A stretch of 32,000 nt of DNA from Gemmata obscuriglobus (GTDB lineage: Bacteria; Planctomycetota; Planctomycetia; Gemmatales; Gemmataceae): NCBI RefSeq assembly GCF_008065095.1, contig NZ_CP042911.1:5070001-5102000 (forward strand), read 5' to 3'. The translations under genes and the position numbers were made by a program. The notes below the pieces were generated by a model. It did not search any database, was not told where the DNA came from, and worked only from the letters and a program-made list of their open reading frames with translations. The first letter of the stretch is position 1, and every line of letters starts with the position of its first letter. This document shows, piece after piece, positions 1,498-29,184 of this stretch.

Positions 1498-1971
1498 ATG
1501 AACCGGTTCGTGCTGAGCATGGTGTGCGGGGCAGTGGCGGGTGTGGTCCTTGCGGACGAACCCAAGGCTGACGCCAAGAAAGCCGCGGTCGAGAAGGCAC
1601 TGAAGGTGTTCACGGGCACCTGGGAGATCGTCACCGTGACGCCGGACGGGGCGACGAAGGACGCCCGGCGGCTGGTGTTCAACAAGGACGGCACCTACGC
1701 GGCCCAAGACAAGGACGGGAAGGAACTCTGGGCGGGGACGTTCGAGATCGACCCGACGGCGGCCCCAAAGGTGTGGGACCACCGGTCGCACGACGCGAAG
1801 AAGACGGGCGCGGACGTACTCGGCATCTACGAACTCGACTGTGACAAGTTGAAGGTGGCCTGCGTGGTCGGGCAGTGGAAAGACAAGCAGTGGACCGGCA
1901 AGGCGCGCCCGAAGTCGGTCGACCCGAAAACGGCGGATGTGGTGATCGAGATGAATCGGGTCAAAGGGTAG
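1498..1971 (+). CDS. Secreted TIGR03067-like (planctomycete-type) domain protein of unknown function
   Basis: ATG at 1498 with a hydrophobic signal-like N-terminus (MNRFVLSMVCGAVAGVVLA). The pattern GTWEIVTVTPDG...FEIDPTAAPKVWD...GIYELDCDKLKVAC...ARPKSV matches my recollection of the TIGR03067 domain. Only the last 157 codons of the listed 685..1971 ORF are taken as real. Confidence 0.6.
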   Translation: MNRFVLSMVCGAVAGVVLADEPKADAKKAAVEKALKVFTGTWEIVTVTPDGATKDARRLVFNKDGTYAAQDKDGKELWAGTFEIDPTAAPKVWDHRSHDAKKTGADVLGIYELDCDKLKVACVVGQWKDKQWTGKARPKSVDPKTADVVIEMNRVKG

Positions 1972-2392
1972 GTCAGGGCGAAGTTAGAACGTCGAGAGTT
2001 CGGTATTACAAGAACCGCGGGGCGTACTTCGCGCACCTTGAGGAACGCAGGTTCGCCTCGCCGACTGACCAGACGACGCCCAAAGGGGAAGACCGACACC
2101 GCTACCCTCACCTGATTCCAAGAGCTGACATTGGTCAGTAGTGCCGGCGCCGGCGACCACCGGGTACCAGCGCACGGCACAAGCCGTCACCCAAAAGCAA
2201 TACCCGAACACGGTCGCGCGGTCGATCAGTGCTCGGCTCGTTGGGAAAAGTTGCCACCTGCCGCGTGAGGCTGCGGGTGATGGTGATGAGCAACACTGGC
2301 AGCAAGCTGTTCACGCTCCAATCGCTCACTCACTTCAAGGCGGACGAACATGAGTCGAATCCGGCCTTGAGCCGCGCGGAAAGTGGGTGCCT

Positions 2393-4450
2393 TTACACCT
2401 CGGAGCGGACGGTTTTGCGGAACACGGTATCCTCCCGGTACATCCATTCGCCGCGCTTCAACAGCCTCTCGCGCACCTCGTCCGCCAGTTCGGGGTTGCG
2501 CAGCGCGTTCAGGTTCTCTTCCAGGTACTCTAAGTTCGACGGCGCGGTGAAGCACGCCGACACGCCCGGCGTGTTCAGCGTGTAGCGAAAGCAGTCGCTC
2601 GGCCGGAACGACGGGTCGAGCAGTCGGCCGTAACAGGTGTTGTTGAACGTCAGGACGGAGGTGCCCCGTTCGCACGCGAAGGGAAGCACCTCGGTTTCAG
2701 CCTTTCGATGTGCGGCACTGTGCCGCACCATCACCGGGTTCCAGCCCTCAATAATGGCGTCGCGAGCGATGCCGCGGTTGTGCGTCGAGAGGCCGTACAC
2801 CTGAACCAACCCGTCCGCCTTCAGCCGGTCCAATTCCGAGCGGACGTCAGGGGTAATGCGCTGCCAGGACTGCGTCCAGAAGATGAGGAAGATGCTGATC
2901 CGTTCCAGCTTCATGTTGCGTAGCGCGCGTTCGACATCTTTGCGGATCTTGACGGGGTCGGCTTCGAAGGTGCCAACGAGAACATGAACTCCGCGCCGAT
3001 CGGCGGGCGAGAGGCGTGTCATGAACCGCGTGAGTGTGGCGTAGTTCGGCTCCCAGAAAAAGAGGTTCACGCCCTGCTCGGCGGCGCGCACGTACCCTTC
3101 AACGGGCAGCCCGTAGTGCCCCGATACGCCGAGCGGCGACACGACCGGACCGTCGGGACCAATCTGGCGTGGTCTCACGAGATTGATCGCCGGCAGCGCG
3201 AGCGGTTCGGCGGGTTCGCGCGGCACCGCGGGCGGCTTCCAATGCGCTTCTGGGGCCAGACTCCAGATCGGCACGCGGCACAGCTTGGAAGCACGTGCAA
3301 GCACGAACCACGACGTTTCCTGTGTCGGGTTCTCGACGAGTTCTTTTGCGCGGGCCGGGGTCAGCGCGGCTGCACGCGAATACGGGTGCGTATCGGAAAA
3401 CGGCTCCTCTATCGGCTCGCTCACTTCGACGAGTTGGGGGCGCAATCGGGCGAGATCGGTGGCAGTTTCGTCGGCCGGGAACGCCTCCCCAACCTGCGCG
3501 GCGGCCCACTTGAGGGCCACCAGCGGCGGAGACTCCATTGCAAGGATGTGCTTCGCCACCTCCTCAATGCGGTCCAGTTCTACCCCACGGGTCAGGGCAT
3601 CGAGAACGGGCGCGGTGTCCTCGCGCGGGTCGCCCAGGTAGCTCAGCGCGTGCGCCCATTGCGCAACGGTCCCGTCCTCACGCAGCGCGAGAACGACCCA
3701 GCTCCGCACCCGTTCGTCCGGGTGGTTCACGAGTCGCGCGAGTACAGACAGCGCGTCGCGCCGGCCGGCCCGGCCGAGTAACTCCAGGTTGCGCGCGAGG
3801 ACCGCCGGGTCCCAGTCCCAGAACGGGCACCACGTGGACGGATCGTCTGTGACGCGTTCGGCCGGCGCCTCACCGGTCCAGCGGTAATGCAGGTACTCCC
3901 CAAGGCGCAGGGCGTGCGGATGCTCACCGAGCATCCGTACGATCAGCTCCTGGCTCCTCCCAGGCTCACGGCCAAACGATTCGAGGACTTGGGCGACCGC
4001 GTACCGCACGCGCCAGTGCGGATCTGAGGACGCCGCCATAACCGAGGCGTACGCACCTTGAGCCGCGAGTGCGCTCACAGCCGCGCGTCGCACTTGCCAG
4101 AACGCGTCGTACTCCCGCAGGCGCTGGAGCGCACGGGTCGTGAGCGCCCTCGGTCCGCATAGCTTCCGCCGTGTGACCTCATTCACGGCGAGGATACGCA
4201 CACTCGGGTGCGGGCTGTTGAGCGCGCGCACGACTGTGTCGGATACAAGCGCCGAAGTGTCGTGTTCGAGGCTGCGGAGCGCGGCCGCAGCGGCGGTCGC
4301 ACCGGTCTCGCGGTTCAGCACCAACTCGACCAGACCTTCAATTTCGGCGCGTTCGACTGTCCCGCGAAATGCTGACGCGACTGATGGCGCCGCGTCGGGG
4401 TCGAGCAGGGCGTAGGAGCGGGCCAGCGGGTGGTCGTTTGGAACGCGCAT
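2393..4450 (-). CDS. HEAT-repeat (PBS-lyase type) protein fused to a C-terminal aldo/keto-reductase-like TIM-barrel domain
   Basis: The N-terminal half has HEAT-like repeats: HPSVRILAVNEV, FWQVRRAAVSALA, DPHWRVRYAVAQVLE, HPDERVRSWVVLALRE. The C-terminal ~260 aa align by eye to the AKR fold (GVNLFFWEPNYA, LERISIFLIFW, ADGLVQVYGLSTHN, VMVRHSAAH, GTSVLTFNNTCYGRL). The start is ambiguous: ATG at 4450, or ATG-ATG at 4498/4495. No clear SD precedes either. Confidence 0.7.
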   Translation of the reverse strand: MRVPNDHPLARSYALLDPDAAPSVASAFRGTVERAEIEGLVELVLNRETGATAAAAALRSLEHDTSALVSDTVVRALNSPHPSVRILAVNEVTRRKLCGPRALTTRALQRLREYDAFWQVRRAAVSALAAQGAYASVMAASSDPHWRVRYAVAQVLESFGREPGRSQELIVRMLGEHPHALRLGEYLHYRWTGEAPAERVTDDPSTWCPFWDWDPAVLARNLELLGRAGRRDALSVLARLVNHPDERVRSWVVLALREDGTVAQWAHALSYLGDPREDTAPVLDALTRGVELDRIEEVAKHILAMESPPLVALKWAAAQVGEAFPADETATDLARLRPQLVEVSEPIEEPFSDTHPYSRAAALTPARAKELVENPTQETSWFVLARASKLCRVPIWSLAPEAHWKPPAVPREPAEPLALPAINLVRPRQIGPDGPVVSPLGVSGHYGLPVEGYVRAAEQGVNLFFWEPNYATLTRFMTRLSPADRRGVHVLVGTFEADPVKIRKDVERALRNMKLERISIFLIFWTQSWQRITPDVRSELDRLKADGLVQVYGLSTHNRGIARDAIIEGWNPVMVRHSAAHRKAETEVLPFACERGTSVLTFNNTCYGRLLDPSFRPSDCFRYTLNTPGVSACFTAPSNLEYLEENLNALRNPELADEVRERLLKRGEWMYREDTVFRKTVRSEV

Positions 4451-4521
4451 CGGTGCTTGTGCAAAGGGGTGACGTCCGCTAACTTCTACGCACATCATCG
4501 ACGGTCGGAGGGGGTCACGCA

Positions 4522-6072
4522 ATGTCTGCTTCTCAGTCCGCTCCGGCGTGGCTGCTGCTACCGCTCCCGGCCAACGCGGACGCCGACGCAATTCTCATCG
4601 CCACAATCGAGCAGTACGCGACTTCGCTACCGCAAGAGTTCAAGAAGCTCCACGACGCACTCGACGAGGTGCGGGCGCTGGCGAGCTATGAACCGGCCGT
4701 GAACCGCTCCAACACGCTCGTCTGGGAGAAGCTCGAAACCCTGCTCACAGCGCCAGAAGGAACGGCCCGCATCGCTCTCATCCGTTACGCTCGCGAACAC
4801 ATGCCCGAGCGGGCGTGCGCGCGTGTCCTACGGCGGCTCGCGAAAGACGCGGACATGAACGTACGCCGCACCGTGGCGAAAGCGATCCGGAAGGCGAAGA
4901 TTCAAGAGGTCGCCATCCCGGCCAAGAAGGACGGCGACTGGGACCCGTCCGGGTGGCTCCTACCGGACGAAGTTTCAAAGGTCACGCGCCACAAAACCGG
5001 CAAACGCGCGCAAGAGCGCAGCGGGGTTCCGGCGCTCACGAAGCTCGCAGAGTTGCGCAAGCTCCTCGGGATCAAATCGACGAACCAGCTCGGGTTCTTC
5101 CTGCTCGCCAGCGACCACAAGGGCGGGCCGTACACCACACACAAGATCCCGAAACGCGACGGCAGCGATCGCCAGATTTGCGCGCCCAAGAAACAACTGA
5201 AGTGGGTGCAGAAACAGATCCTGAAACACATCCTGAGCAAGGTGCCGCCGCACCCGGCGGCGCACGGGTTCGTCAGCGGCCGCTCCACGGTGAGCAACGC
5301 CACCCCGCACGTCGGCGCGGAGTTGGTGGTGAAGTTCGACCTCAAGGACTTCTTCCCGACGGTCCACTACTTCCGCGTGATGGGCCTGTTCGCGAGCCTG
5401 GGTTACCCGGTCGGTAACTGCATGTTCGGCACCGACGACGGCGCCAACCAGATTGCGCCGGTGCTCGCCCGGCTGTGCTGTTACACCCCGGACCCGAAGC
5501 AGTGGGGCAGCGCAGCGCTTCCGCAAGGCGCGCCGACCTCACCGGCGATCTCGAACCTCGTGTGCCGCCGGCTCGACGCCCGGCTCCAGGGTCTGGCCGA
5601 AACCAATCACGGCACCTACACGCGCTACGCCGACGACCTGACCTTTTCGTTCCCCAAAGCGGAAGGCATGAACCTGGGCCGGTTCCGCTGGTGGGTCGAT
5701 CAGGTGTGTCAGCAGGAAGGGTTCGTGGTGAACCAGGAGAAGTTCCGGGTGATCCGCGATTCGCAGCGCCAGGTGGTGACCGGGATCGTGGTGAACGACG
5801 CGGTTCGCGCGCCCCGTGAGCTGCGCCGCGAGATCAGGGCTATCCTCCACAACTGCGAAACCAAGGACCTCGAATCGCAGGCGAAACGGCACCCGCGGTT
5901 CCGGGGGAACGTCCCGGCGTTCTCGCAATACTTGCGAGGCATTGCGGCGTACCTCAACATGGTGCAGCCGGAGCACGGGGCCGCCCTGCTCCGCCGGGTC
6001 AACGAACTGCTCGGCGGTCCGATCGAAGGTGACACGCCCTCGCAGGACCAGGGGAAGGCGGGTGACGCATGA
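4522..6072 (+). CDS. Retron-type reverse transcriptase with a ~170-200 aa N-terminal alpha-helical (HEAT-like) extension
   Basis: The ATG at 4522 is preceded by GGAGGGGG (4507-4514). RT motifs occur in order: IPKRDGSDRQICAP, HGFVSGRSTVSNATPH (NAxxH, nt 5296-5310), KFDLKDFFPT, LPQGAPTSPAISN, YTRYADDLTFS (YADD, nt 5626-5637), RQVVTGIVVN (VTG, nt 5776-5784). The N-terminal extension contains DADMNVRRTVAKAIRK. Confidence 0.85.
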   Translation: MSASQSAPAWLLLPLPANADADAILIATIEQYATSLPQEFKKLHDALDEVRALASYEPAVNRSNTLVWEKLETLLTAPEGTARIALIRYAREHMPERACARVLRRLAKDADMNVRRTVAKAIRKAKIQEVAIPAKKDGDWDPSGWLLPDEVSKVTRHKTGKRAQERSGVPALTKLAELRKLLGIKSTNQLGFFLLASDHKGGPYTTHKIPKRDGSDRQICAPKKQLKWVQKQILKHILSKVPPHPAAHGFVSGRSTVSNATPHVGAELVVKFDLKDFFPTVHYFRVMGLFASLGYPVGNCMFGTDDGANQIAPVLARLCCYTPDPKQWGSAALPQGAPTSPAISNLVCRRLDARLQGLAETNHGTYTRYADDLTFSFPKAEGMNLGRFRWWVDQVCQQEGFVVNQEKFRVIRDSQRQVVTGIVVNDAVRAPRELRREIRAILHNCETKDLESQAKRHPRFRGNVPAFSQYLRGIAAYLNMVQPEHGAALLRRVNELLGGPIEGDTPSQDQGKAGDA

Positions 6073-7049
6073 GCGACGACGACACCGTGCCGGACGAGGC
6101 GAGCCGGTTCCCGTCCGCCCGCGCGATGGTCGAACTGGAAGCCCTCACCAATCAGGCTCCTGGGCCGGAACGCGGGCTCGCGGCATGGAAGCTCGTTACG
6201 GCCGCGGCCCGCAACCCGGACGGGCACGCGGCTATCGACTTCGCGCGCGAGCACGAACTCGTGCAACCCTGCGAACACACAGACAGCACGATCGCGAACC
6301 TGAAGTGGACGAACCCGATCGACGGGTCGGAAATGATCTGGATACCCGCCGGCAAGTTCTCCGTCGGAACGCAGGGCGAGTTCGGCGAGTGCGCGGGGTT
6401 CTCACTCGCCCGCTGGCCGGTCACCAACGAGCAGTACGTCCAGTTCCAAACAGAAACGGGTTACTGGCCGCAGGACGCGCAGAACCCCGTTACCGGCGAT
6501 CTGCTCGCGCACTGTACCGGTGGAAAGATCCCGAAAGGCCGGGAGAAGCACCCGGTCACCTGGGTGTCGCTGTTCGACGCGCTCGCGTACTGCGCGTGGG
6601 CCGGGCTCACGCTCCCGACCGAGTGGATGTGGGAAAAGGCGGCCCGCGGTACCGACGGGCGCATGTACCCGTGGGGCACGAACGCCGGCACCAAGGGGAA
6701 CCGTAAGCTCGCGCACGTCGAAGCGCGTTCGACGTGTGAGGTGGGGAAGTTCTCACACGTGCGCTCGCCGTTCGGGTGCGAGGAGTTGGTCGGCAACGTG
6801 TCCGAGTGGTGCCTACCCGCGGCCGAAGACGCCGCACCGGGCGAGTTCCCGCCGACAGAGCAGAACATCCCGTACCCGACCGAGGCCGCCCCGGTGGAAA
6901 CGGTCGTGCGCGGGGCGTGCTTTCTGCGGGGATCAGCGAACGCGATGAAATCGACGCACCGTCGGCGCCTCTCCGTGGCGCGGCGGAACCAGTGGGTCGG
7001 GTTCCGCCCGGCGTGCCTGTTGCCAGTGCGACCGTCGGCGAAATTCTAA
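6069..7049 (+). CDS. SUMF1/FGE-sulfatase-fold (C-type-lectin-like) domain protein lacking the FGE catalytic Cys pair
   Basis: Its ATG overlaps the RT stop codon (ATGA at 6069-6072). SUMF1-fold signatures are present: MIWIPAGKFSVG, RWPVTNEQY, HPVTWVSLFDALAYCAWAG, LPTEWMWEKAARG, YPWG, GNVSEWC, VVRGACF, WVGFRPA. Where FGEs carry CHxSYC, the sequence reads RGACFLRGSANAMKSTHRRR. Confidence 0.85.
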   Translation: MSDDDTVPDEASRFPSARAMVELEALTNQAPGPERGLAAWKLVTAAARNPDGHAAIDFAREHELVQPCEHTDSTIANLKWTNPIDGSEMIWIPAGKFSVGTQGEFGECAGFSLARWPVTNEQYVQFQTETGYWPQDAQNPVTGDLLAHCTGGKIPKGREKHPVTWVSLFDALAYCAWAGLTLPTEWMWEKAARGTDGRMYPWGTNAGTKGNRKLAHVEARSTCEVGKFSHVRSPFGCEELVGNVSEWCLPAAEDAAPGEFPPTEQNIPYPTEAAPVETVVRGACFLRGSANAMKSTHRRRLSVARRNQWVGFRPACLLPVRPSAKF

Positions 7050-7079
7050 ATCGCTCATCGACCGCTGAATCCGTTCAGG

Positions 7080-8408
7080 TCATTTTGCCTCAATGCAGTA
7101 CAGGTACTTTTCGCCACGCAGGAACAGTTGCTTGCCGACCGCAACGGGTGAGGCGTCGATCGGGTCGTCAAGCTTATTGACCGATACCACGTCCAGCGAC
7201 TCTCCGGCTTTCACAACAACCGTGGTTCCGGTGCGGTCCACGAAGTAGATGTGTCCGCCGGCCACGAGCGGCGAAGCGTAAAAGGTCTTAGCCTGCGAAA
7301 GCCGCTCCTTCTCGATAACCGCCTTGCCGGTCTTCGCGTTGAGGATCGTGACCATCGGTTCATTGGTGGAGTTGAAGTACAACAGTTCTCCACTGAGCAC
7401 AGGCGACGGGACGTACGGCGTACCGAACGAATAACGCCAGTCGACTTTGCCTTTGTCACCGAGGTCACCACTCGAACCGAGTGGGACCGACACGGCGGCG
7501 GCCCGTTGGTAGCCACTCATACAAATGACGGAATCACCGAACCGCACCGGAGACGGGATCGGGTTTACGGTCATGCCGCCACACTGCCACAGCACCGCAC
7601 CGGTCGCGAGGTCGTAGCTGCGGATACGGGCCGTACCGTTGGTGACCACCTGCGTCTTACCCCCGAAGTCCACGACCAGCGGGGTGGACCACGTCGTCTT
7701 CTCGTCGCGCTTCGCCTCCCACTGCGTTTTCCCGGTCGCGGCCTCCAGACAGATGAGCCGCGAATCGATCTCCTGGTCGTAGTTCAGCAGCAAGTGGCCC
7801 CCGTGAACGACCGGAGTCACGGCCTCGCCCCAGCCGAGCCGCGTGTGCAACCGGCCGAGATCGGTCCGCGCCCACTTCACATTGCCGTCGAAATCGAGGG
7901 CGTAGGTGCCGAACGAGCCGAACGACGCGTACAGCAACTTCCCGTCGGTCGTCGGCGACCCCGCGGCGTAGGAGTGCGTGACGTGGTGGCCTTCGTGCGG
8001 CACCATCTCCGCAACCTGCTTTTCCCACAACTTGCTGCCGTCCCGCCGGTCGAAGCAGAGCACGACGAACTTGTAAAAGTTCGTCGGCGGTTCCGTCTTC
8101 ACCGCGAGCTTCGTTTCGACCTTGGGCATCTCCTCGGGTTTGGCCCTGCGGTCCGTTTTGATGGCGGTGAGGACGAAGATGCGGTCCCCCCACATGATCG
8201 GCGTGGCACTACCGCGGCCGGGCAGTTCGGCCTTCCAGGTGATGTTGGTCTTCGCGTCCCACTTGATTGGCGGGCGAGCGTTCGGCGCGGAGCCGTCGGC
8301 GTTGGGTCCACGCCAGTGGTGCCAGTTGGCTTCGACATCCCTCGGGCTTTGAGCGCGGGCGAACGGCACAAGTGTCAAAGCGAGCGCCACGGCAGCGAGG
8401 CGGTGCAT
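7080..8408 (-). CDS. Secreted PQQ-like / BamB-like beta-propeller repeat protein
   Basis: ATG at 8408 gives the signal peptide MHRLAAVALALTLVPFARAQS. There are repeated propeller-blade motifs with conserved Trp (ITWKAEL, KLWEKQ, VKWARTD, TQWEAK, VLWQCGG, VDWRY). The gene is convergent with the SUMF1 gene, 30 nt apart. Confidence 0.75.
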   Translation of the reverse strand: MHRLAAVALALTLVPFARAQSPRDVEANWHHWRGPNADGSAPNARPPIKWDAKTNITWKAELPGRGSATPIMWGDRIFVLTAIKTDRRAKPEEMPKVETKLAVKTEPPTNFYKFVVLCFDRRDGSKLWEKQVAEMVPHEGHHVTHSYAAGSPTTDGKLLYASFGSFGTYALDFDGNVKWARTDLGRLHTRLGWGEAVTPVVHGGHLLLNYDQEIDSRLICLEAATGKTQWEAKRDEKTTWSTPLVVDFGGKTQVVTNGTARIRSYDLATGAVLWQCGGMTVNPIPSPVRFGDSVICMSGYQRAAAVSVPLGSSGDLGDKGKVDWRYSFGTPYVPSPVLSGELLYFNSTNEPMVTILNAKTGKAVIEKERLSQAKTFYASPLVAGGHIYFVDRTGTTVVVKAGESLDVVSVNKLDDPIDASPVAVGKQLFLRGEKYLYCIEAK

Positions 8409-8443
8409 CGGGTTGAACTCCGGTGTTAAAGCGGACGACGAAC

Positions 8444-8965
8444 CTACCCACCAAGATACGCGAGCGCCCGCGCAACGCACTCGTCCAGCGTTAGCGCCCC
8501 GGTGTCGAGGGTGAGCCGCGGCAACGTCAGCGGAACAGCGCCGGCCCGAACGCGGTCGTAAAGGTCGGGAGTGCGGTTGCCAGCCAGGTGCGCCCCAGCG
8601 GAATGGTCCGAGGCGATCCGCTCACGGGCGACGCCCGGCGCGCACACGCACTCAATCACGCGCAGCGATAAACCGGCCTGGGCGGCCAGCGAGGAGGGGG
8701 CATCAAGTTGACCGGCTTTGCTGAACGTGCGGCCGTCAAGGAAGACGGGCACCGTGGGACGTGTCTTGAGAAGGTGCGCGGCGGCCTGGTAGACCGCCGT
8801 CATTGCGATTTCATCTTGCGCGGAAGAGTAGTCCAGAACGGAGGCAGTGAACAGCGCGGCCCGGACAACATCTTTGCTGAGCACGACGCCACCGGATGCA
8901 GCGGCGAGGCGGGCGGCGAGTGTACTTTTACCACTCCCGGGCAAACCGGCCATTGCAATGAGCAT
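8444..8965 (-). CDS. P-loop kinase / AAA_33-like ATPase
   Basis: ATG at 8965 gives MLIAMAGLPGSGKSTLA, a Walker A motif directly at the N-terminus. The size of about 173 aa is typical of small predicted kinases. Confidence 0.7.
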   Translation of the reverse strand: MLIAMAGLPGSGKSTLAARLAAASGGVVLSKDVVRAALFTASVLDYSSAQDEIAMTAVYQAAAHLLKTRPTVPVFLDGRTFSKAGQLDAPSSLAAQAGLSLRVIECVCAPGVARERIASDHSAGAHLAGNRTPDLYDRVRAGAVPLTLPRLTLDTGALTLDECVARALAYLGG

Positions 8966-9033
8966 GGTGGCGTTCCCGGAAACGGCACGGCGCCGGAGTG
9001 ACACACCGGCCGCCCTTGTGTGACCAACTCGAA

Positions 9034-10722
9034 TCACCCCTGACGGTCCCGCCGGGCGCTCACCCGCCGGCCCCGGAGGCGCACGCCGTTCAGCGACTCG
9101 ATCACGTGTTCGGCAGCGTCCTCGGGCACATCCACCAGCGAGAACCGCTCCGTGATCTCGATGCTGTGGATCTCGCGCCCGGGCAGGCCGGCCTCGTTGG
9201 CGATCGCCCCCACGAGGTCGCGCGGCATGATCCCCGCCTCGCGCCCGGCGCTGATGAAGATCCGCGCGAGCCGCGGCCCCGGCCCGCGGAAGGCACCGGC
9301 CCCCCGCCGCGGGGGCAACGGGTTGTTGTCGCGTCCGTTGCGATCGCCGCGCTGGGGGACAGTCGCCACCGGAATGTCCGGACCGTCGTCGATGTCGCCG
9401 CCCCGGGCGCGGTGCGCCAGTTTGAGCGCCGCGAGAGCCACATCGGTCGGATCGAGTTCGCCCACGAGTGACCCGAACATCGCCCGGAACGCCTCCAGTT
9501 CCCCAGCGGCGACCGTTTCACGGATCGCGACCTTCGTGCGTTCCAGCCGCTTCTCGCGAAGGGTCGCGGCCGTGGGCACCTGGCCGTACTCGATCCGCTG
9601 CCCGGTGTGTCGCTCGATCGCGCGGAGGGCGCCTTGCTCCCGCGGTTCCGCGACGGTGATCGCCACGCCCTCGCGGCCGGCGCGGCCGACGCGGCCGATC
9701 CGGTGAACGTAGTTCTCGATCCCCAACGGGAGCGAAAAGTTCACCACGTGCGTGAGGTGTTCCACGTCGAGCCCGCGGGCCGCGACGTCGGTCGCCACCA
9801 GCAGGTTCGCCTGCCCGGCGCGGAACAGGCGCATCACCCGGTCGCGGGCGTCCTGCGCCATGCCGCCGTGCAGCGCCTCGGGCCGGTACCCCCGGCCCCC
9901 GAGCGCCTCCGTCAGCTCGTCCACTTCCGAGCGCGTCTTGCAGAAAATGAGCGCCGCCGCCGGGGACTCCCCGTCGAGCACCCGACCGAGCGCCGCGAGC
10001 TTGTACTGCCGCTGCACCACGTACGCGGTCTGGCGCACCTTCGGCAACTCGCCCGCGGGCACCGGGTCCCGCGTGACGTGGATCTCGGTCGCGTTCTTCA
10101 GGTGCTTGACCGCGATCGCCTTGATCCTCGGCGCCATGGTGGCGGAGAACAGGGCCGTTTGCCGCTCCGTGGGCGTGGCAGCGAGGATCGCCTCAATGTC
10201 CTCGGCGAACCCCATGTCCAGCATCTCGTCCGCTTCGTCGAGCACGACGACGGTGATGGCGTCGAGCTTCAGCGTGGTGCGGCGCATGTGGTCGAGCGCG
10301 CGGCCCGGGGTCGCGACGACCACGTCGATCCCGCGGTCCAGCGCGCGGATCTGCTGGTCCATCGGCGCGCCGCCGTAGATCGGCAGGACACGCACACCGA
10401 GCGGCTGCCCGTATTTCGCAACCGACTCGGCCACCTGCATGGCGAGTTCGCGCGTCGGCACGAGGATCAGGGAGGTGGGCTTGGTGCGTGCGGTGCTTCG
10501 TGCGAGGCCGTGCAGAATGGGCAGCGAGAACGCGGCGGTCTTGCCGGTGCCGGTGGCGGCCCGGCCAATCAAGTCGTGCCCCTCGATCAGCGGCGGAATC
10601 GCCTCCCGCTGAATGGGCGTCGGCTCCTCGTATCCCAGTCCCGTAAGCCTTTCCACGAGGCGACTGTCGAGACCCAGCTTAGCGAACCCCGACTCAGTTT
10701 CCGTCGCCATCGTTTCAACCAT
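9034..10722 (-). CDS. deaD: DEAD-box ATP-dependent RNA helicase with a DbpA-type C-terminal RNA-binding domain (DeaD/CsdA-like)
   Basis: Motifs seen: Q-motif (GYEEPTPIQ), motif I AATGTGKT, DEAD (VVLDEADEML), SAT, HRIGRVGRAG. The C-terminal RRM-like DbpA segment reads ARIFISAGREAGIMPRDLVGAI...VRLRGRRV. The start is uncertain: ATG at 10722 or 10710, with the listed ORF opening at TTG 10752. Confidence 0.9.
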   Translation of the reverse strand: MVETMATETESGFAKLGLDSRLVERLTGLGYEEPTPIQREAIPPLIEGHDLIGRAATGTGKTAAFSLPILHGLARSTARTKPTSLILVPTRELAMQVAESVAKYGQPLGVRVLPIYGGAPMDQQIRALDRGIDVVVATPGRALDHMRRTTLKLDAITVVVLDEADEMLDMGFAEDIEAILAATPTERQTALFSATMAPRIKAIAVKHLKNATEIHVTRDPVPAGELPKVRQTAYVVQRQYKLAALGRVLDGESPAAALIFCKTRSEVDELTEALGGRGYRPEALHGGMAQDARDRVMRLFRAGQANLLVATDVAARGLDVEHLTHVVNFSLPLGIENYVHRIGRVGRAGREGVAITVAEPREQGALRAIERHTGQRIEYGQVPTAATLREKRLERTKVAIRETVAAGELEAFRAMFGSLVGELDPTDVALAALKLAHRARGGDIDDGPDIPVATVPQRGDRNGRDNNPLPPRRGAGAFRGPGPRLARIFISAGREAGIMPRDLVGAIANEAGLPGREIHSIEITERFSLVDVPEDAAEHVIESLNGVRLRGRRVSARRDRQG

Positions 10723-10994
10723 GTGGATTTTCTCTGAGTACAGTTCCGTCAAAGGTAATCTCTTATTATATGGAATCTTAACGCCGAACCGAGAGCGGCG
10801 TGTGAATTCCGGGAGAGCCGCCGGAAAATGGGCGAAAAAACCGGTTGGTATTCACGCCAGCGGCGCCTTCCAGAATTAGAGGTTCACCGCGGCACAACGG
10901 TTCGCGCGGAACCGGAATGGCAGCGCCGGACCGACCGACGACACTTGCAGTCGGTCCCGGACAACTCCGGTAACCGACCGGACTCGCGACGTGT

Positions 10995-12374
10995 TCAATC
11001 TTTCTCGCCCCACACCTTCGGAGACACGAACCCTTTCGGTTTCGGTTTCGCCTTTGGCGGAACCGCCTGCTTCGCGAACCTGGCCAGCGCCTCACGCAGT
11101 TCGCTCACCTTGTCGGCGTACTTCTCGGCAAGGTTTGTTTTCTCGAACGGGTCGTCCTTCAGGTTGAACAGCTCAACACTTGCTTTGCCCGGGTTTTTCG
11201 CCGCAGCGCCGTCGGGATCGTCCGTCCCGTTCTTCACAACCAGTTTCCAGTCGCCGGCGCGAACGGCCCCGGTGTTTGGCGTCGTGTTAAGCAGAATGGC
11301 ACCGTGCGGGCTCGGTTTGCCGCCCGTCAGGACCGGCCAGATGTCGAGGCCGTCGACGGGTAGCTGCTGTTCACCCGTCGGCCCGCCGAGTTTCAGCAGC
11401 GTCGGGTACCAGTCCACCACGTGAAGCGGCTCGGTGATCGTCGTCCCCGGCCTGATGTGGCCGTCGAAGGCGGCGCACGCCGCAACGCGCACACCGCCTT
11501 CGTACAGGGTCCCCTTCCCCGCTCGGAATTTCCCGTTGCTCGTCACCACACCGGGTTGCGGACCGCCGTTATCGCTCAGAAACACGAAGAGCGTGTTCTT
11601 ACGCACGCCAGCCTTCTCGACGGCCGCCACGATCTGCCCGACCGCCTCGTCCATCGCGGCGAGCATCCCGGCGTACTTCTGTCGCTCGCCCTTCAGGTGC
11701 CCGTAGGGTTTCAGATACTCCTCCGGAACCTGGTGCGGGGCGTGAACGGCGTTGAAGGGCACGTACAGGAAAAACGGCTTCTTCCCGGCATGAGTTTGCA
11801 CGAACTGCACAGCGTCCTTCGCAACGAGGTGCGTGCTGTACCCCTCGTCGCTGTTCACCTTGTCGTCACGGTGCCAGTCAAAGCCGCCGTCACGGATGTG
11901 CGTGAAGTAGTCGAGAGCGCCGTTGTAGTGCCCGTACTGGTGATCGAACCCGCGTTTCGTGGGCAGGTACTCGGGGGCAAAATGCCCGAGGTGCCATTTG
12001 CCGATCACGGCAGTCGTGTAGCCGGCGTCCTTCAAGCCCTGCGCGACGGTACGCTCGTCGAGTGGGAGTCCGTACTGCGCCCACGGGCGAACCACCCCGA
12101 CTTGTAACCCGTGGCGCATGGGGTAGCGACCGGTCATAAACGCAGCCCGAGTCGGGCTACACACCGGCTGCGCGTAGAACGCGTCGAGGGTCGCACCGGC
12201 AGCGGCGATTTTGTCGATGTTCGGCGTTTTGATCTCTTTGCCGCCCATGAACCCGCAGTCCTCGCGGCCGAGGTCGTCGGCGAGGAGGAACACAACGCTC
12301 GGTTGCGCCGGCGCCTCGGCCCGCGCCACCGACGCGGGCGCGAGAAGGAAGAGCAAAACTGTGAATCGCCGCAT
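10995..12374 (-). CDS. Cys-type arylsulfatase (arylsulfatase B / N-acetylgalactosamine-4-sulfatase-like)
   Basis: ATG at 12374 gives the signal peptide MRRFTVLLFLLAPASVARA. The protein has LADDLGREDCGF and the formylglycine motif CSPTRAAFMTGR (C-x-P-x-R), plus GKWHLG. Confidence 0.9.
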   Translation of the reverse strand: MRRFTVLLFLLAPASVARAEAPAQPSVVFLLADDLGREDCGFMGGKEIKTPNIDKIAAAGATLDAFYAQPVCSPTRAAFMTGRYPMRHGLQVGVVRPWAQYGLPLDERTVAQGLKDAGYTTAVIGKWHLGHFAPEYLPTKRGFDHQYGHYNGALDYFTHIRDGGFDWHRDDKVNSDEGYSTHLVAKDAVQFVQTHAGKKPFFLYVPFNAVHAPHQVPEEYLKPYGHLKGERQKYAGMLAAMDEAVGQIVAAVEKAGVRKNTLFVFLSDNGGPQPGVVTSNGKFRAGKGTLYEGGVRVAACAAFDGHIRPGTTITEPLHVVDWYPTLLKLGGPTGEQQLPVDGLDIWPVLTGGKPSPHGAILLNTTPNTGAVRAGDWKLVVKNGTDDPDGAAAKNPGKASVELFNLKDDPFEKTNLAEKYADKVSELREALARFAKQAVPPKAKPKPKGFVSPKVWGEKD

Positions 12375-12561
12375 GGGGGTTCGTCCTGTGATGGGGAACT
12401 CAGCCCGGATACGTATCAAGGAGAATACCGGCGAACCATTCCGGCACGCCCGCTGCTCTCGATGAAGAAGTTTTTTGCGCCGACTTGAAAAAGCTCGTTC
12501 CGGCGCGCCAGATAGCACCACGAGCCCACAGAACGGCTCACCGACTCACGGGAACCACACG

Positions 12562-22993: not shown

Positions 22994-23263
22994 CTACCGC
23001 GGGCGGGCAAGAGCGTCGTAGCTCGGGGCGCCGGGGGCGGCGATCCGCTTTACTTTTCTGGGGTCCCGTCCTCGCCCGCGTGTCCCTTCATCTCCTGCAC
23101 CAAGCGGGGCGCGCGACGCGGACATTGGAACGCCTCGGGGTGTTTGGGACACGCGTTGGCGGCAAACGAACCCTCCAACGTGGGCAGACCGGCGGCCTCG
23201 TCTTCCTTGTTCTGGGCCTCGTGAACACTCGGGCCGAGTCCGCGACGCGTGTACGGTCGCGTA

Positions 23264-24000
23264 AGTGAAGTTCCCAACGAATGGTGGACAGCAGGAAAAC
23301 GGCGTAAGTTCCAGTCACAGGAGGGAATGCCGATGGCCGGTCCTAAGCGGAAAACGTACACGGCCGAGTACACGTTGTCGGCGGTGAAAATGATCACCGA
23401 CCAGAAGTGGTCGGTCGCCGAGGTGGCTCGGCGTCTGGGCGTCACCGAGAACCGACTGCTCGAGTGGGACAGAGTGCACGCCCGGAAGGGAGCCGATGCG
23501 GCCCCGGGTCCGGAGAACAGACCCTACTCGAATAGGAGAATCAGCGGCTCCGGGCCGAGATCCAGAGGTCCGAAGCGGAGCGCGACATCCGAAAAAAGCA
23601 ACGGTGTTTTTCGCCAGCCAGCCGAACAGATCTTCGCGGGGATCGAGGAATGCAAGGGCCAGCTGGCCGTGTCGTGGATGTGTCGGGTCCTCGGAGTTCC
23701 CGCGCCGGCTACTACGCCTGGGGCACGCACGCCCCGTGCGACCGAGGTTCGGCGCGAGGAACGGGCCGCCGAAGTGAAGAGCATTCACGCCGAGTTGAAG
23801 GCCCGTTATGGGAGCCCACGGGCGCACGCTGAGCGGGTGGCCGAGGGCACGCGTGCCGCGTCAACTTCTTGGCCCGAGTGATGCGTGTCAGCGAGGGCCA
23901 GGCGCAGGTGACGAGTGGCGTGGCCCGGGGTTGTTCGGATACACGGGTTCGTGGGCCGCATGCAGGTGCTAGTCGTGGAGGCGTGGTAACCACCATTGAC
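23264..24000 (+). pseudogene. IS3-family element remnant: orfA plus a frameshifted start of orfB, with the DDE domain missing
   Basis: The ATG at 23333 (AGGAGGGA at 23319-23326) gives MAGPKRKTYTAEYTLSAVKMITDQKWSVAEVARRLGVTENRL, an IS3/IS911 orfA HTH. Recognisable IS3 pieces then lie in three frames: KKATVFFASQ (frame of ORF 23496), VSWMCRVLGV and YGSPRAHAE (frame of ORF 23249), RAGYYAW (frame of ORF 23650). No DDE core follows. A possible left inverted repeat starts near 23264 (tgaagttccc...). The right boundary is approximate. Confidence 0.65.
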
Positions 24001-28231: not shown

Positions 28232-28542
28232 GAAACTCCCCTCGCTCACTTCCGACCCCACACCAAGCGGTTGGGTGATGCCAGACACACGGCGTGCGGA
28301 TACCCACTCGGGGCCGAGTCCGCAAGAGTCTGGGTGGTGGAAACGAACAATTTCACAATGGATCAGGTTCGTTTGGTGGGAGCGGAGGTTGGAGGGGATT
28401 TCTGGAGAAAAAGAGGTAATGAGTAGTGGGTTTCGAGCCGGTTCGGGAAAGTTATTGTGAAGGCAAAAGAACTCTCGACGAGACTCACTCTCGTGCGAAA
28501 TCGTCCGTAGAAGGGGTTGTGAAACTGCTAAAAACGAGTTGA

Positions 28543-28652
28543 CTAGTGTTCCGTCTACGCTAAATTTTCGGGTCGAAGCGCCCTGCTTTTGCAGGAATTC
28601 CCTGTGGATACCACTTCAGCAACCCGAAAGTTTAGCGTGGATGACGCACTAG
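28543..28652 (+). repeat. 110-nt long-stem hairpin / inverted repeat (MITE-like or structured RNA) in the fliG-fliH spacer
   Basis: Arms 28543-28573 and 22622-28652 are not the pair; the correct arms are 28543-28573 (ctagtgttccgtctacgctaaattttcgggt) and 28622-28652 (acccgaaagtttagcgtggatgacgcactag). They pair over 31 positions with only 2 mismatches. Several positions are G:U on a + strand RNA but C:A on a - strand RNA. The 48-nt apical part contains cctgc-tttt-gcagg (28582-28595). Confidence 0.6.
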
Positions 28653-29046
28653 AGAGGTTGCATCGGATTCTCGAAAGGCACTCAAGGGGCACTCGTCACA
28701 AGGTCATGTTTAGTCAGTAGATGCCTCTCCCTGTGATGTGTGGACGCGAGTTTCTGTCATCAGTTTCTATGTGATGGCGCGTGCCGCTCGCACAGCTCAT
28801 CCGAGTCAATAGCTGGTAACTGCGACAAGAATTGAGCTGAGCGCAGGATAGCGATTGAGACGCATTGTCTCAATCGTTCTCAGAAGTTTCACGTTCCACC
28901 TAAAGCCTCAAAGCACACGAGTGGCCGGGGCTTTTGCTGAGCTGGTCCCCAACTTGAAACTTGGAACCTGAAGCTACTGGTGTTGAATTCGCGTGACGCC
29001 ACTATTTTGTCGTCGTCGCATCAGCGAGCATCAAATCCAGCGTTTC

Positions 29047-29075
29047 AAGTCCGATTCCCGAATCGGACTTTTTTC
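29047..29075 (+). terminator. Canonical intrinsic terminator on the + strand, antisense to the flagellar operon, with no upstream + strand ORF
   Basis: A 10-bp stem, aagtccgatt (29047-29056) pairing with aatcggactt (29061-29070), has the loop cccg. It runs into a T tract (t29069-t29074). The reverse orientation has no U tract after the stem. Confidence 0.55.
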
Positions 29076-29184
29076 GGGTTCAAGTGCGAAGTGATCAAAC
29101 TGCACAGTTGTGGCGGCATTCAGAACAGGTTCCTTATTCGCGCCGAGGGGCATTTCGGCGCGTCCGCTGTCATCGCAGATGCCG

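Follow-up and report, generated by a model that had tools for sequence, protein, structure and literature searches.

A retron-type reverse transcriptase of Gemmata obscuriglobus with an FGE-fold and a HEAT/aldo-keto reductase-like partner: a probable new retron subtype, sister to type XIII

We analyzed a 32-kb stretch of the Gemmata obscuriglobus genome (hereafter the window, whose positions serve as coordinates throughout) that carries the gene of a retron-type reverse transcriptase (RT), together with related loci that were found in scans of genomes and metagenomes and are designated here by L-numbers. The RT gene (4522..6072, + strand) encodes 516 amino acids (aa) and was identified by hidden Markov model (HMM) families, motifs and homologues. 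It is followed on the same strand by the gene of a 326-aa protein with the FGE-sulfatase fold (the C-type-lectin-like fold of formylglycine-generating enzyme, FGE; 6069..7049, +), as judged from Pfam, PDB sequence matches and an AlphaFold2 (AF2) model, and the stop codon of the former overlaps the start codon of the latter in an ATGA that can be read directly in the sequence (6069..6072, +). On the opposite strand lies the gene of a 685-aa protein with HEAT repeats and an aldo-keto reductase (AKR)-like part (2393..4450, −; Pfam, AF2, Foldseek and conservation), to which we refer as HEAT-AKR, and the 71 nt between this gene and that of the RT (4451..4521, no strand assigned) form a divergent intergenic region. 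The gene on the other side of the pair (7080-8480) is likewise on the opposite strand, separated from the FGE-fold gene by 30 nt (7050-7079), so that a preliminary description of this locus, made from the sequence alone, was correct in stating that the genes on both flanks are oppositely oriented.

By its sequence, the RT belongs to the retron lineage and not to group II introns or diversity-generating retroelements (DGRs). The motifs NATPH (5296-5310), YADD (5626-5637) and VTG (5776-5784) occur in the open reading frame (ORF), in the order and at the positions given by the preliminary description, Pfam RVT_1 spans aa 209-417 (5.5e-19), and a thumb-like region lies C-terminal to it. In PADLOC the highest-scoring model is RT_XIII (1.2e-109, 365 bits), with RT_other and RT_outgroup next, and the top 25 matches are all retron RT models. 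Among the NCBIfam models, those of retrons alone match with strength and the group II maturase falls far under its cut-off; a match to the DRT/UG/Abi families was not obtained either, with Drt2 at 37 bits (cut-off 390) and Drt3a at 19.8 bits (cut-off 200). The nearest solved structure is the retron Ec86 RT (2e-40). These results uphold the retron-clade assignment made in the preliminary description, as well as the non-RT N-terminal extension of about 170-200 aa that it had noted: the extension (aa 1 to ~170, nt 4522-5031, +) is coding, and more than 120 homologues preserve it from end to end. These full-length RT homologues share 57-95% identity, and all that carry a taxon name are from Gemmataceae or from Gemmata/Frigoriglobus. 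The extension has a weak Pfam HEAT_2 match (aa 71-131), and its comparison with HEAT-AKR by hhalign gave a weak HEAT-like similarity (E 0.004, probability 8.7%) for which we do not claim homology. Since YADD and all other RT motifs are invariant in the alignment of homologues, polymerase activity is under selection.

The FGE-fold protein matches Pfam FGE-sulfatase (1e-37) over aa 87-313, a domain that is preceded by a three-helix N-terminal domain (aa ~10-61) with no signal peptide. Its PDB sequence matches are OvsA, CalU17, FGE, ToxD, EgtB and TvpA (E 8e-14 to 5e-7), and a Foldseek search with the AF2 model (predicted local distance difference test score, pLDDT, 67) returned FGEs (probability 1.0, TM ~0.45-0.5), ToxD, PvdO, OvsA/EgtB and TvpA. 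At the position of the catalytic, copper-binding FGE Cys pair the protein reads RGACFLRGSANAMKSTHRRR, a region that we take to correspond to C336/C341 of human FGE, having matched it by hand to the FGE motif. The pair is not conserved in 12 locus orthologues or in 28 database homologues, the lone Cys being not invariant and the second absent, and on this residue pattern the protein is predicted to be non-catalytic as an FGE, in agreement with the earlier claim of a SUMF1/FGE fold devoid of the catalytic Cys pair. Orthologues also share the motifs VRGACFLR...HRRxLS..RRNxWVGFRPA at the C-terminus, which is therefore not a DGR variable region. Public records mis-annotate this partner as ‘Ser/Thr kinase pkn1’ or ‘formylglycine-generating enzyme’: the protein is 100% identical to a G. 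obscuriglobus entry annotated ‘Ser/Thr kinase pkn1’ / ‘Sulfatase-modifying factor’, and a Pfam search found no kinase domain in it despite the ‘Serine/threonine-protein kinase pkn1’ annotation.

HEAT-AKR matches the Pfam models HEAT_2, HEAT and Aldo_ket_red. Its start was placed at 4450, which is consistent with the gene calls for L084-L086; one G. obscuriglobus assembly annotates it as an N-truncated protein of 513 aa. The AF2 model (pLDDT 88) consists of an alpha-solenoid (aa 1-390) and a C-terminal TIM barrel (aa ~430-685), the best Foldseek matches of the barrel being aldo-keto reductases at TMt 0.71-0.78, with 4pmj, 4exb and 3erp spanning 0.66-0.78, and PADLOC HEAT-ARM_XIII gave a weak local match (1.4e-8, 30.6 bits). 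The AKR catalytic tetrad Asp-Tyr-Lys-His is not kept: in a HMMER alignment to 3n2t the His is replaced by Phe (IHW to IFW), and the position of the Lys reads GT[F/Y] throughout the family, with Asp, Tyr and Lys assigned by motif context. Other positions are invariant in both phyla in which the family was compared (FWEPxY, STH, M.RH..AH and YGR). An exhaustive profile search delimited a family of 311 clusters (50% identity) at E≤1e-30, from which it follows that the module is not rare, and the AKR-like part is C-terminal in most full-length members among the best 150 matches of the family.

To follow these genes across genomes, we used a scan with one genome per species, which yielded 80 loci, and a local phmmer comparison over 83 genome loci. 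All 13 RTs that are at least 46% identical (the window, L001, L002, which is the same as L006, L003-L005, L007-L012 and L065) have an FGE ORF directly downstream, compared with none of the ~70 remoter RTs, so that the adjacency is not unique to this genome. The loci other than the window come from Gemmatales (L001, L002, L003-L005, L007 and L065), Pirellulales (L008, L010 and L012) and Myxococcota metagenome-assembled genomes (MAGs; L009 and L011), and with the window included the RT-FGE pair is found in 18 distinct loci of Gemmatales, Pirellulales and two Myxococcota MAGs. Gene calls at six RT homologues (L001-L003 and L084-L086, i.e., Frigoriglobus tundricola, three Gemmata genomes and two MAGs) give the RT and then an FGE-sulfatase gene, and the metagenome loci L096 and L117 carry the same genes. 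The look of co-translation that the preliminary description had read from the ATGA is shared widely, considering that a stop/start overlap of the coupling type (ATGA, GTGA or TTGA) is kept across two phyla, in 12 of 16 related loci; in the remainder the two genes overlap by 1 nt or by 8 nt, are separated by a 3-nt spacer, or show what looks like an assembly frameshift. This recurrence indicates that the RT-FGE adjacency does not result from chance.

The proposal that the pair forms a self-contained two-gene unit did not hold. HEAT-AKR lies beside the RT in 16 of the 18 FGE-type loci, being missing only in L002/L006 and L004, and is a constant partner in the sister clade described below; it is therefore the third, constant component of the module. 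It is divergent and upstream of the RT in the window, L001, L003, L005, L007-L012 and L084-L086, and convergent and downstream in L065, L096 and L117. For 14 loci of two phyla, the pairwise distances of RT, FGE-fold protein and HEAT-AKR are correlated (r = 0.92-0.975, the upper value being that of HEAT-AKR versus RT), and contigs of equal size recur in the homologue lists of all three proteins (e.g., 482310, 495368, 139282, 93592 and 123132). The boundaries of DNA conservation tell of the same unit. In blastn comparisons with Gemmata-clade loci that have HEAT-AKR, similarity to the window begins at the HEAT-AKR stop, and in L004, which lacks this gene, it begins at the RT start; the block extends to the FGE stop and no further in L001 and L005, which are not syntenic, and in Gemmata spp. 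and L004 it resumes ~30 nt past that stop, in PQQ_2/AAA_33 genes. We consider it very probable that RT, FGE-fold protein and HEAT-AKR are three co-inherited proteins of a new retron subtype. In L002, a long-read MAG locus (7479-10955), the FGE partner is frameshifted near its C-terminus, which makes it either a pseudogene or the product of an indel error, and a toxin-antitoxin pair of TacA1 and a GNAT acetyltransferase lies directly upstream of the RT, replacing HEAT-AKR.

A neighbour-joining (NJ) tree built on the RT core recovers the FGE-linked RTs as a monophyletic clade with a sister group from Myxococcota (L013-L021, L030 and L042), and both stand apart from RTs that are linked to SWIM proteins. 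Within the FGE-linked clade, the tree groups the RTs by taxon, into Gemmata/Frigoriglobus, other Gemmatales, Pirellulales and Myxococcota. In nearly all of L022-L083, a SWIM protein with the pattern CxCx12GPCxH is encoded just upstream of the RT. By the definition of Mestre et al. 2020 (PMC7736814), who list a winged-helix and SWIM Zn-finger accessory cluster (114) next to HEAT/ARM-repeat clusters (216, 259, 1688 and 3262), these SWIM-linked loci are canonical type XIII retrons. The SWIM protein of L066 scores 8e-163 on PADLOC SWIM_XIII. Neither the window nor any FGE-type or HEAT-AKR-type locus was found to encode a CxCx12CxH protein, and no neighbour in the window matched SWIM_XIII. In addition, RT_XIII gives 509-621 bits for the canonical RTs of L066, L075 and L023, versus 361-378 bits for the window RT and its relatives, and the window RT covers positions 61-424 of this model, leaving its N-terminal part unmatched. 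The HMM scores place the RT among retrons, and not with group II introns, DGRs or DRTs, and tree and HMM scores together put it in a clade that by sequence is a sister branch of the canonical SWIM-associated type XIII retrons. The preliminary description had proposed an undescribed RT-based module; this holds for the partners of the RT and not for a position outside the known retron diversity.

The sister group provides a comparison for the role of each component. Its loci encode a HEAT and Aldo_ket_red protein of ~1000 aa upstream of the RT and in the same direction, and such a HEAT-AKR was found in seven of nine sister loci. Directly downstream of the RT, in the slot held by the FGE-fold gene in the window clade, six loci have a gene for a leucine-rich repeat (LRR) protein (L013:9421-10797, L042:9371-10783, L014:9359-10333, L030:9436-10419, L017:1907-2980 and L015:1508-2398). 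Five of the proteins match Pfam LRR models and that of L030 groups with them by BLAST only; two N-terminal architectures occur among them. Here too, the RT stop and the best candidate start of the LRR gene overlap, the shared sequence being ATGA in L042 and L014 and GTGA in L030. In L016, L018 and L020, no LRR gene follows the RT. Since some sister loci lack a gene in the slot, the minimal conserved set consists of HEAT-AKR, a non-coding RNA (ncRNA) and the RT, and the RT-coupled protein is an add-on drawn from a ligand-recognition fold, either LRR or FGE/C-type lectin. Of the two roles that had been suggested for the FGE-fold protein, sensor or effector, the former is favoured in the sense of a binding or sensor part and the latter is less likely: because the slot in the sister clade holds an LRR protein or nothing, the part of an accessory binding subunit is a likelier one for the FGE-fold protein than that of the effector.

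The ncRNA was recognized in the sister group as a conserved element of ~155 nt between HEAT-AKR and RT, with flanking inverted repeats, an AGCTAGC motif, the hairpin CCGCGATGTTACGTCGCGG and compensatory changes in 27 of 47 predicted pairs. A covariance model (CM), named R1, was built from this element and used with nhmmer to find the copies of the FGE group, which always lie just past the 3' end of HEAT-AKR. There are three copies in L003, four in L008, two each in L065 and L010, one in L007 and one, on the HEAT-AKR strand, in L009, and L012 has one full copy and two weak partial matches; together with the metagenome loci L096 and L117, nine FGE-type loci (L003, L007-L010, L012, L065, L096 and L117) carry ncRNA beside module genes. 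Over 29 distinct FGE-group copies, a 21-bp a1/a2 stem shows compensatory changes at 16 of its 21 pairs, and the hairpin CTGCGGCG-TTA-CGCCGYGG is nearly invariant. Each copy folds as a terminal stem, msr hairpins and a long central hairpin. RNAalifold on the raw MAFFT alignment recovered only the msr hairpin, the msd being unalignable, and was therefore replaced by an explicit pair count on a named structure: for the a1/a2 stem and the msr hairpin together (29 pairs), 92.5% of the cells are paired, slid controls give 42-51%, and the observed value was attained in 0 of 500 shuffles. The ~155-nt element is thus the predicted msr-msd gene of the clade.

Sequence variation within this element is concentrated in the msd. 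Its centre is 32% identical between copies versus 79% for the flanks, and the same applies between tandem copies of one locus, where the msr and a1/a2 parts are 70-94% identical and the msd hairpins 26-49%. Such tandem arrays lie at L003:5361-5927 (three copies), L008:3946-4893 (four), L065:10517-10843 (two), L094:698-1387 (three), L096:6726-7051 (two) and L117:4078-4401 (two). A metagenome scan with the ncRNA core motif added 32 contigs, and only L096, L098 and L117 among them have any module gene beside the ncRNA. Outside these three, the contigs resemble one another in the ~150-nt unit only, and no RT, FGE-fold protein or HEAT-AKR is encoded within up to 8 kb. These orphan ncRNAs (L087:2279-2427, L099:8017-8161, L111:7893-8054, L115:9918-10058, L102:2012-2157, L104:2029-2204 and others in L087-L118) are flanked by ordinary chromosomal genes (DUF7133-HEAT-cytochrome c, GT2, GFO_IDH_MocA, AcrB) at a GC content of 63-67%, and no protein neighbour is conserved among them. 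In the sister locus L018 (4099-7865), a YhgA-like transposase gene (Transposase_31, 6633-7865) is situated between two ncRNA copies (4099-4478) and the RT, and this retron may be disrupted or rearranged.

When compared with type XIII retrons (Mx162, Mx65, Sa163 and Ne144; PADLOC retron_XIII), the window module shares with them RT_XIII as the closest model, the N-terminal extension of the RT, a HEAT/ARM-type repeat protein alongside, although that of the window matches HEAT-ARM_XIII weakly and locally, a largely vertical inheritance with Myxococcota involved, and an msr hairpin motif that is found just upstream of canonical type XIII RTs as well as in relatives of the window module. It differs from them in having no winged-helix/SWIM protein, in an RT of a sister clade that scores 365 instead of 509-621 bits, in the AKR-like TIM barrel of the repeat protein, which is not described for type XIII, in the FGE-fold or LRR protein that is coupled to the RT in the window clade and its sister, and in an ncRNA that forms tandem arrays and orphans in the relatives and is absent in cis from the window. 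Ec86/Eco1, Ec67, Ec83, Ec78 and Eco8 have a homologous RT core and an RT-msDNA particle controlling partner proteins, as would be expected here too (msDNA, multicopy single-stranded DNA). Unlike the window RT, however, their RTs are ~310-380 aa long without an N-terminal extension, or fused to Toprim (Ec67), their effectors are NDT, Toprim, PtuAB and OLD, and a single ncRNA copy lies directly upstream of the RT.

We infer that the module is best read as a retron in which HEAT-AKR is the constant partner and the FGE-fold or LRR protein a swappable binding or sensor subunit. The RT would reverse-transcribe the msd hairpins into msDNA, as in other retrons, and the RT-msDNA particle would assemble with HEAT-AKR, the likeliest effector or scaffold because it has the only enzyme-like fold in the minimal systems. 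The particle would also bind the protein encoded after the RT, whether FGE fold or LRR, most likely as a swappable receptor or regulatory subunit, and, if characterised retrons are a guide, the whole would be a switch that senses phage or stress. A role in conflict is suggested by the LRR/FGE swap, the hypervariable msd and the cross-phylum distribution. The parts of this reading differ in strength. That the module is a new retron subtype, sister to type XIII, we hold to be very likely, and that it works as a defence switch with the FGE-fold protein as its sensor is a tentative proposal by analogy, to which we give somewhat less than even chances; for the two taken together, a compromise judgement puts the explanation slightly on the probable side.

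A number of observations weigh against this explanation at one level or another. The position of the clade was derived from HMM scores and from an NJ tree that had neither an outgroup nor bootstrapping, and the AF2 model of the FGE-fold protein has a moderate pLDDT of 67 overall, its N-terminal domain being the confident part. Of the catalytic residues of AKRs, Lys and His are gone from the AKR-like barrel, and domain and PADLOC searches found no recognisable toxin or nuclease domain in any of the three proteins. Inheritance looks largely vertical within Gemmataceae; the neighbours in the window are housekeeping genes (DeaD helicase, sulfatase, UGPase, HtrA-like proteases and flagellar genes) with no defence island; and the viral contigs are without the module, yielding no FGE-partner orthologue and no ncRNA motif. 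Furthermore, no msr-msd-like element was found in the window by Rfam at gathering threshold, by CM R1 with default settings and with filters off, by nhmmer or by motif searches, nor was any ncRNA found in the 6-8 kb flanks of six other Gemmata/Frigoriglobus loci, L002 and L011 (CM with filters off and nhmmer --max).

This negative result was consistent between approaches. With filters off, CM R1 returned only short GC hairpins in the window and the Gemmata-clade loci (best E ~0.03), nhmmer --max with an HMM of the 29 copies gave a best window match of E=23, an inverted-repeat search around the RT start gave chance-like pairs only, and searches for the ncRNA core motif gave nothing beyond chance. 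When six Gemmata/Frigoriglobus loci were aligned, the region past the HEAT-AKR stop contained no conserved block, and the folding z-scores of the gap at 1972-2392 (−0.3 to −2.2) are unremarkable. The intergenic region 4451-4521, which is partly conserved among Gemmata/Frigoriglobus loci, has a fold z-score of ~0.3-0.5 and no CM or HMM match; it is presumably a promoter region, its length being insufficient for a retron ncRNA, although no match to the sigma-70 consensus was found in it and a promoter/terminator scan was uninformative. Downstream of HEAT-AKR, where relatives have the ncRNA, L085 (3310-3845) and L086 (3600-3845) contain GGACAGA-type simple-sequence repeats. The Gemmata RT must therefore either use a template copy encoded elsewhere or belong to a lineage that changed its template, and the existence of orphan ncRNAs in GC-rich contigs makes a trans-encoded template plausible.

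Some of the same observations would also fit a domesticated retron without a role in defence, that is, a vertically inherited cellular device (regulatory, developmental or stress-related) whose FGE-fold protein binds an endogenous ligand. A non-defence role has long been suspected for the vertically inherited type XIII retrons of myxobacteria. Mestre et al. 2020 (PMC7736814), whose clade 10 is type XIII, likewise note its vertical inheritance and a possible non-defence role, and the orthologues of the window RT throughout Gemmataceae at 57-95% identity, the order by taxon in the NJ tree, the housekeeping context, the absence from viral contigs and the want of a toxin-like domain all point the same way. 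On the other hand, the LRR/FGE swap and the hypervariable msd are both typical of conflict systems, and the presence of the module in two phyla requires at least one transfer, so that we regard domestication as a possible but rather unlikely account. To our knowledge, moreover, all functionally characterised retrons act in phage defence. We think it distinctly improbable that the Gemmata/Frigoriglobus lineage has lost the ncRNA altogether, its RT working without msDNA on another template or as a structural or regulatory subunit of a HEAT-AKR/FGE complex. Such a loss would explain why no ncRNA was found in the window or the flanks of the eight related loci and why DNA conservation stops exactly at the gene boundaries; yet YADD and all polymerase motifs are invariant, the search covered 32 kb of a genome of ~9 Mb, and orphan ncRNAs do occur in GC-rich contigs, one of them beside a DUF7133-HEAT-cytochrome c gene of the kind that also stands beside the Frigoriglobus locus L001.

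A further possibility is a multi-template, receptor-equipped retron, in which one vertically inherited RT would serve many msr-msd genes, in arrays and as dispersed orphans, and produce an msDNA library that is read out by the constant HEAT/AKR-like partner and the swappable FGE/LRR recognition subunit, with the templates of Gemmata wholly in trans; we rate this as unlikely. The remaining two explanations concern the adjacency of RT and FGE-fold gene. The FGE-sulfatase fold is a common target fold of DGRs, and TvpA, a variable protein of DGRs in which an RT gene also adjoins an FGE-sulfatase-fold gene and the fold serves as a ligand-binding scaffold, is among the sequence and structure matches of the window protein. 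Mutagenesis of this gene by the RT is nevertheless exceedingly improbable, given an RT of another clade that fits retron models at 1e-109 and not those of DGRs or group II introns, a C-terminus that is conserved instead of hypervariable, and the absence of an Avd-like gene; a direct-repeat search of 1500-9000 gave chance-level repeats of 30-34 nt at 70-77% identity and no template repeat/variable repeat pair, and the candidate was rejected. Planctomycetes are rich in sulfatases, the Pfam match is to FGE-sulfatase, and a sulfatase gene is present at 10995-12521, all of which would suit an ordinary sulfatase-maturation gene that lies beside an unrelated RT by chance. However, the catalytic Cys pair is absent, and the coupling to the RT is kept in loci with other neighbours and without a nearby sulfatase; a true FGE enzyme was excluded on these grounds, and a chance association seems highly improbable.

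Among the other features of the window, the PQQ_2 beta-propeller gene (7080-8480, −) and an AAA_33 kinase-like gene (8444-9037, −), both assigned by gene call and domain match, are syntenic with the RT-FGE pair in Gemmata spp. and L004 and not in F. tundricola or remoter loci; their linkage is probably genus-level synteny and not a component of the module. The sulfatase gene (10995-12521, −; domain match) lies ~4 kb from the FGE-like gene, a closeness that is not kept in other loci. An HTH_Tnp_1 transposase fragment (23249-23881, domain match) was also seen, as was a stretch of ~900 nt between fliH and fliG (28289-29184) without an ORF of at least 150 aa, in a part of the window where GC drops to 0.57. 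The idea of a tRNA-associated integration site found no support, in that no tRNA is present in the window.

In the literature searched, no retron with an FGE-fold or HEAT-AKR partner is described, and nothing relevant was found there on retrons in connection with FGE-sulfatase, formylglycine, aldo-keto reductase or Gemmata. Mestre et al. 2020 (PMC7736814) make no mention of FGE, sulfatase or Planctomycetes, a 2026 survey lists 26 ‘type XIII’ candidates in Planctomycetota and leaves their accessory genes undescribed, and the ‘census of retrons’ preprint does not mention type XIII. The view of the preliminary description that a SUMF1-fold partner lies outside the known retron/DRT effector classes was borne out in the same way, since no PADLOC model matches the FGE-fold protein either. 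Outside retrons, FGE-fold (‘FGS’) domains have been proposed to act in conflict systems centred on NTPases, either in sensing or as ‘neutralising’ effectors (Kaur et al. 2020, PMC7159879), and as sensors fused to Pepco-associated proteases (bioRxiv 10.1101/2025.11.14.688446). The window module resembles these systems in its non-catalytic FGE-fold binding module, its predicted role in defence and the presence of Planctomycetes among the hosts. In contrast, their core is a MoxR-vWA, STAND or GTPase NTPase or a protease and not a retron RT, and the FGE-fold protein of the window is free-standing, with a three-helix N-terminal domain of its own.

Retrons are classified by their effectors, and every characterised retron of which we know pairs RT-msDNA with a recognisable toxin. 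The HEAT-solenoid/AKR-like barrel, the FGE/lectin fold and, in the sister group, the LRR protein would add new classes of retron partners, outside the PADLOC retron models and the literature searched. Type XIII comprises the myxobacterial retrons discovered in 1984, whose function is a long-standing question on which the clade nearest to them offers a comparative handle. Neither tandem nor orphan ncRNA copies with a hypervariable msd are described in the literature searched, and current pipelines, as far as we know, expect one ncRNA beside the RT; if functional, the arrays and orphans would change how genomes are searched for retron templates. If the multi-template reading is true, the clade would represent a new organisational principle among retrons, in which a repertoire of templates and a receptor subunit take the place of one ncRNA and one toxin.

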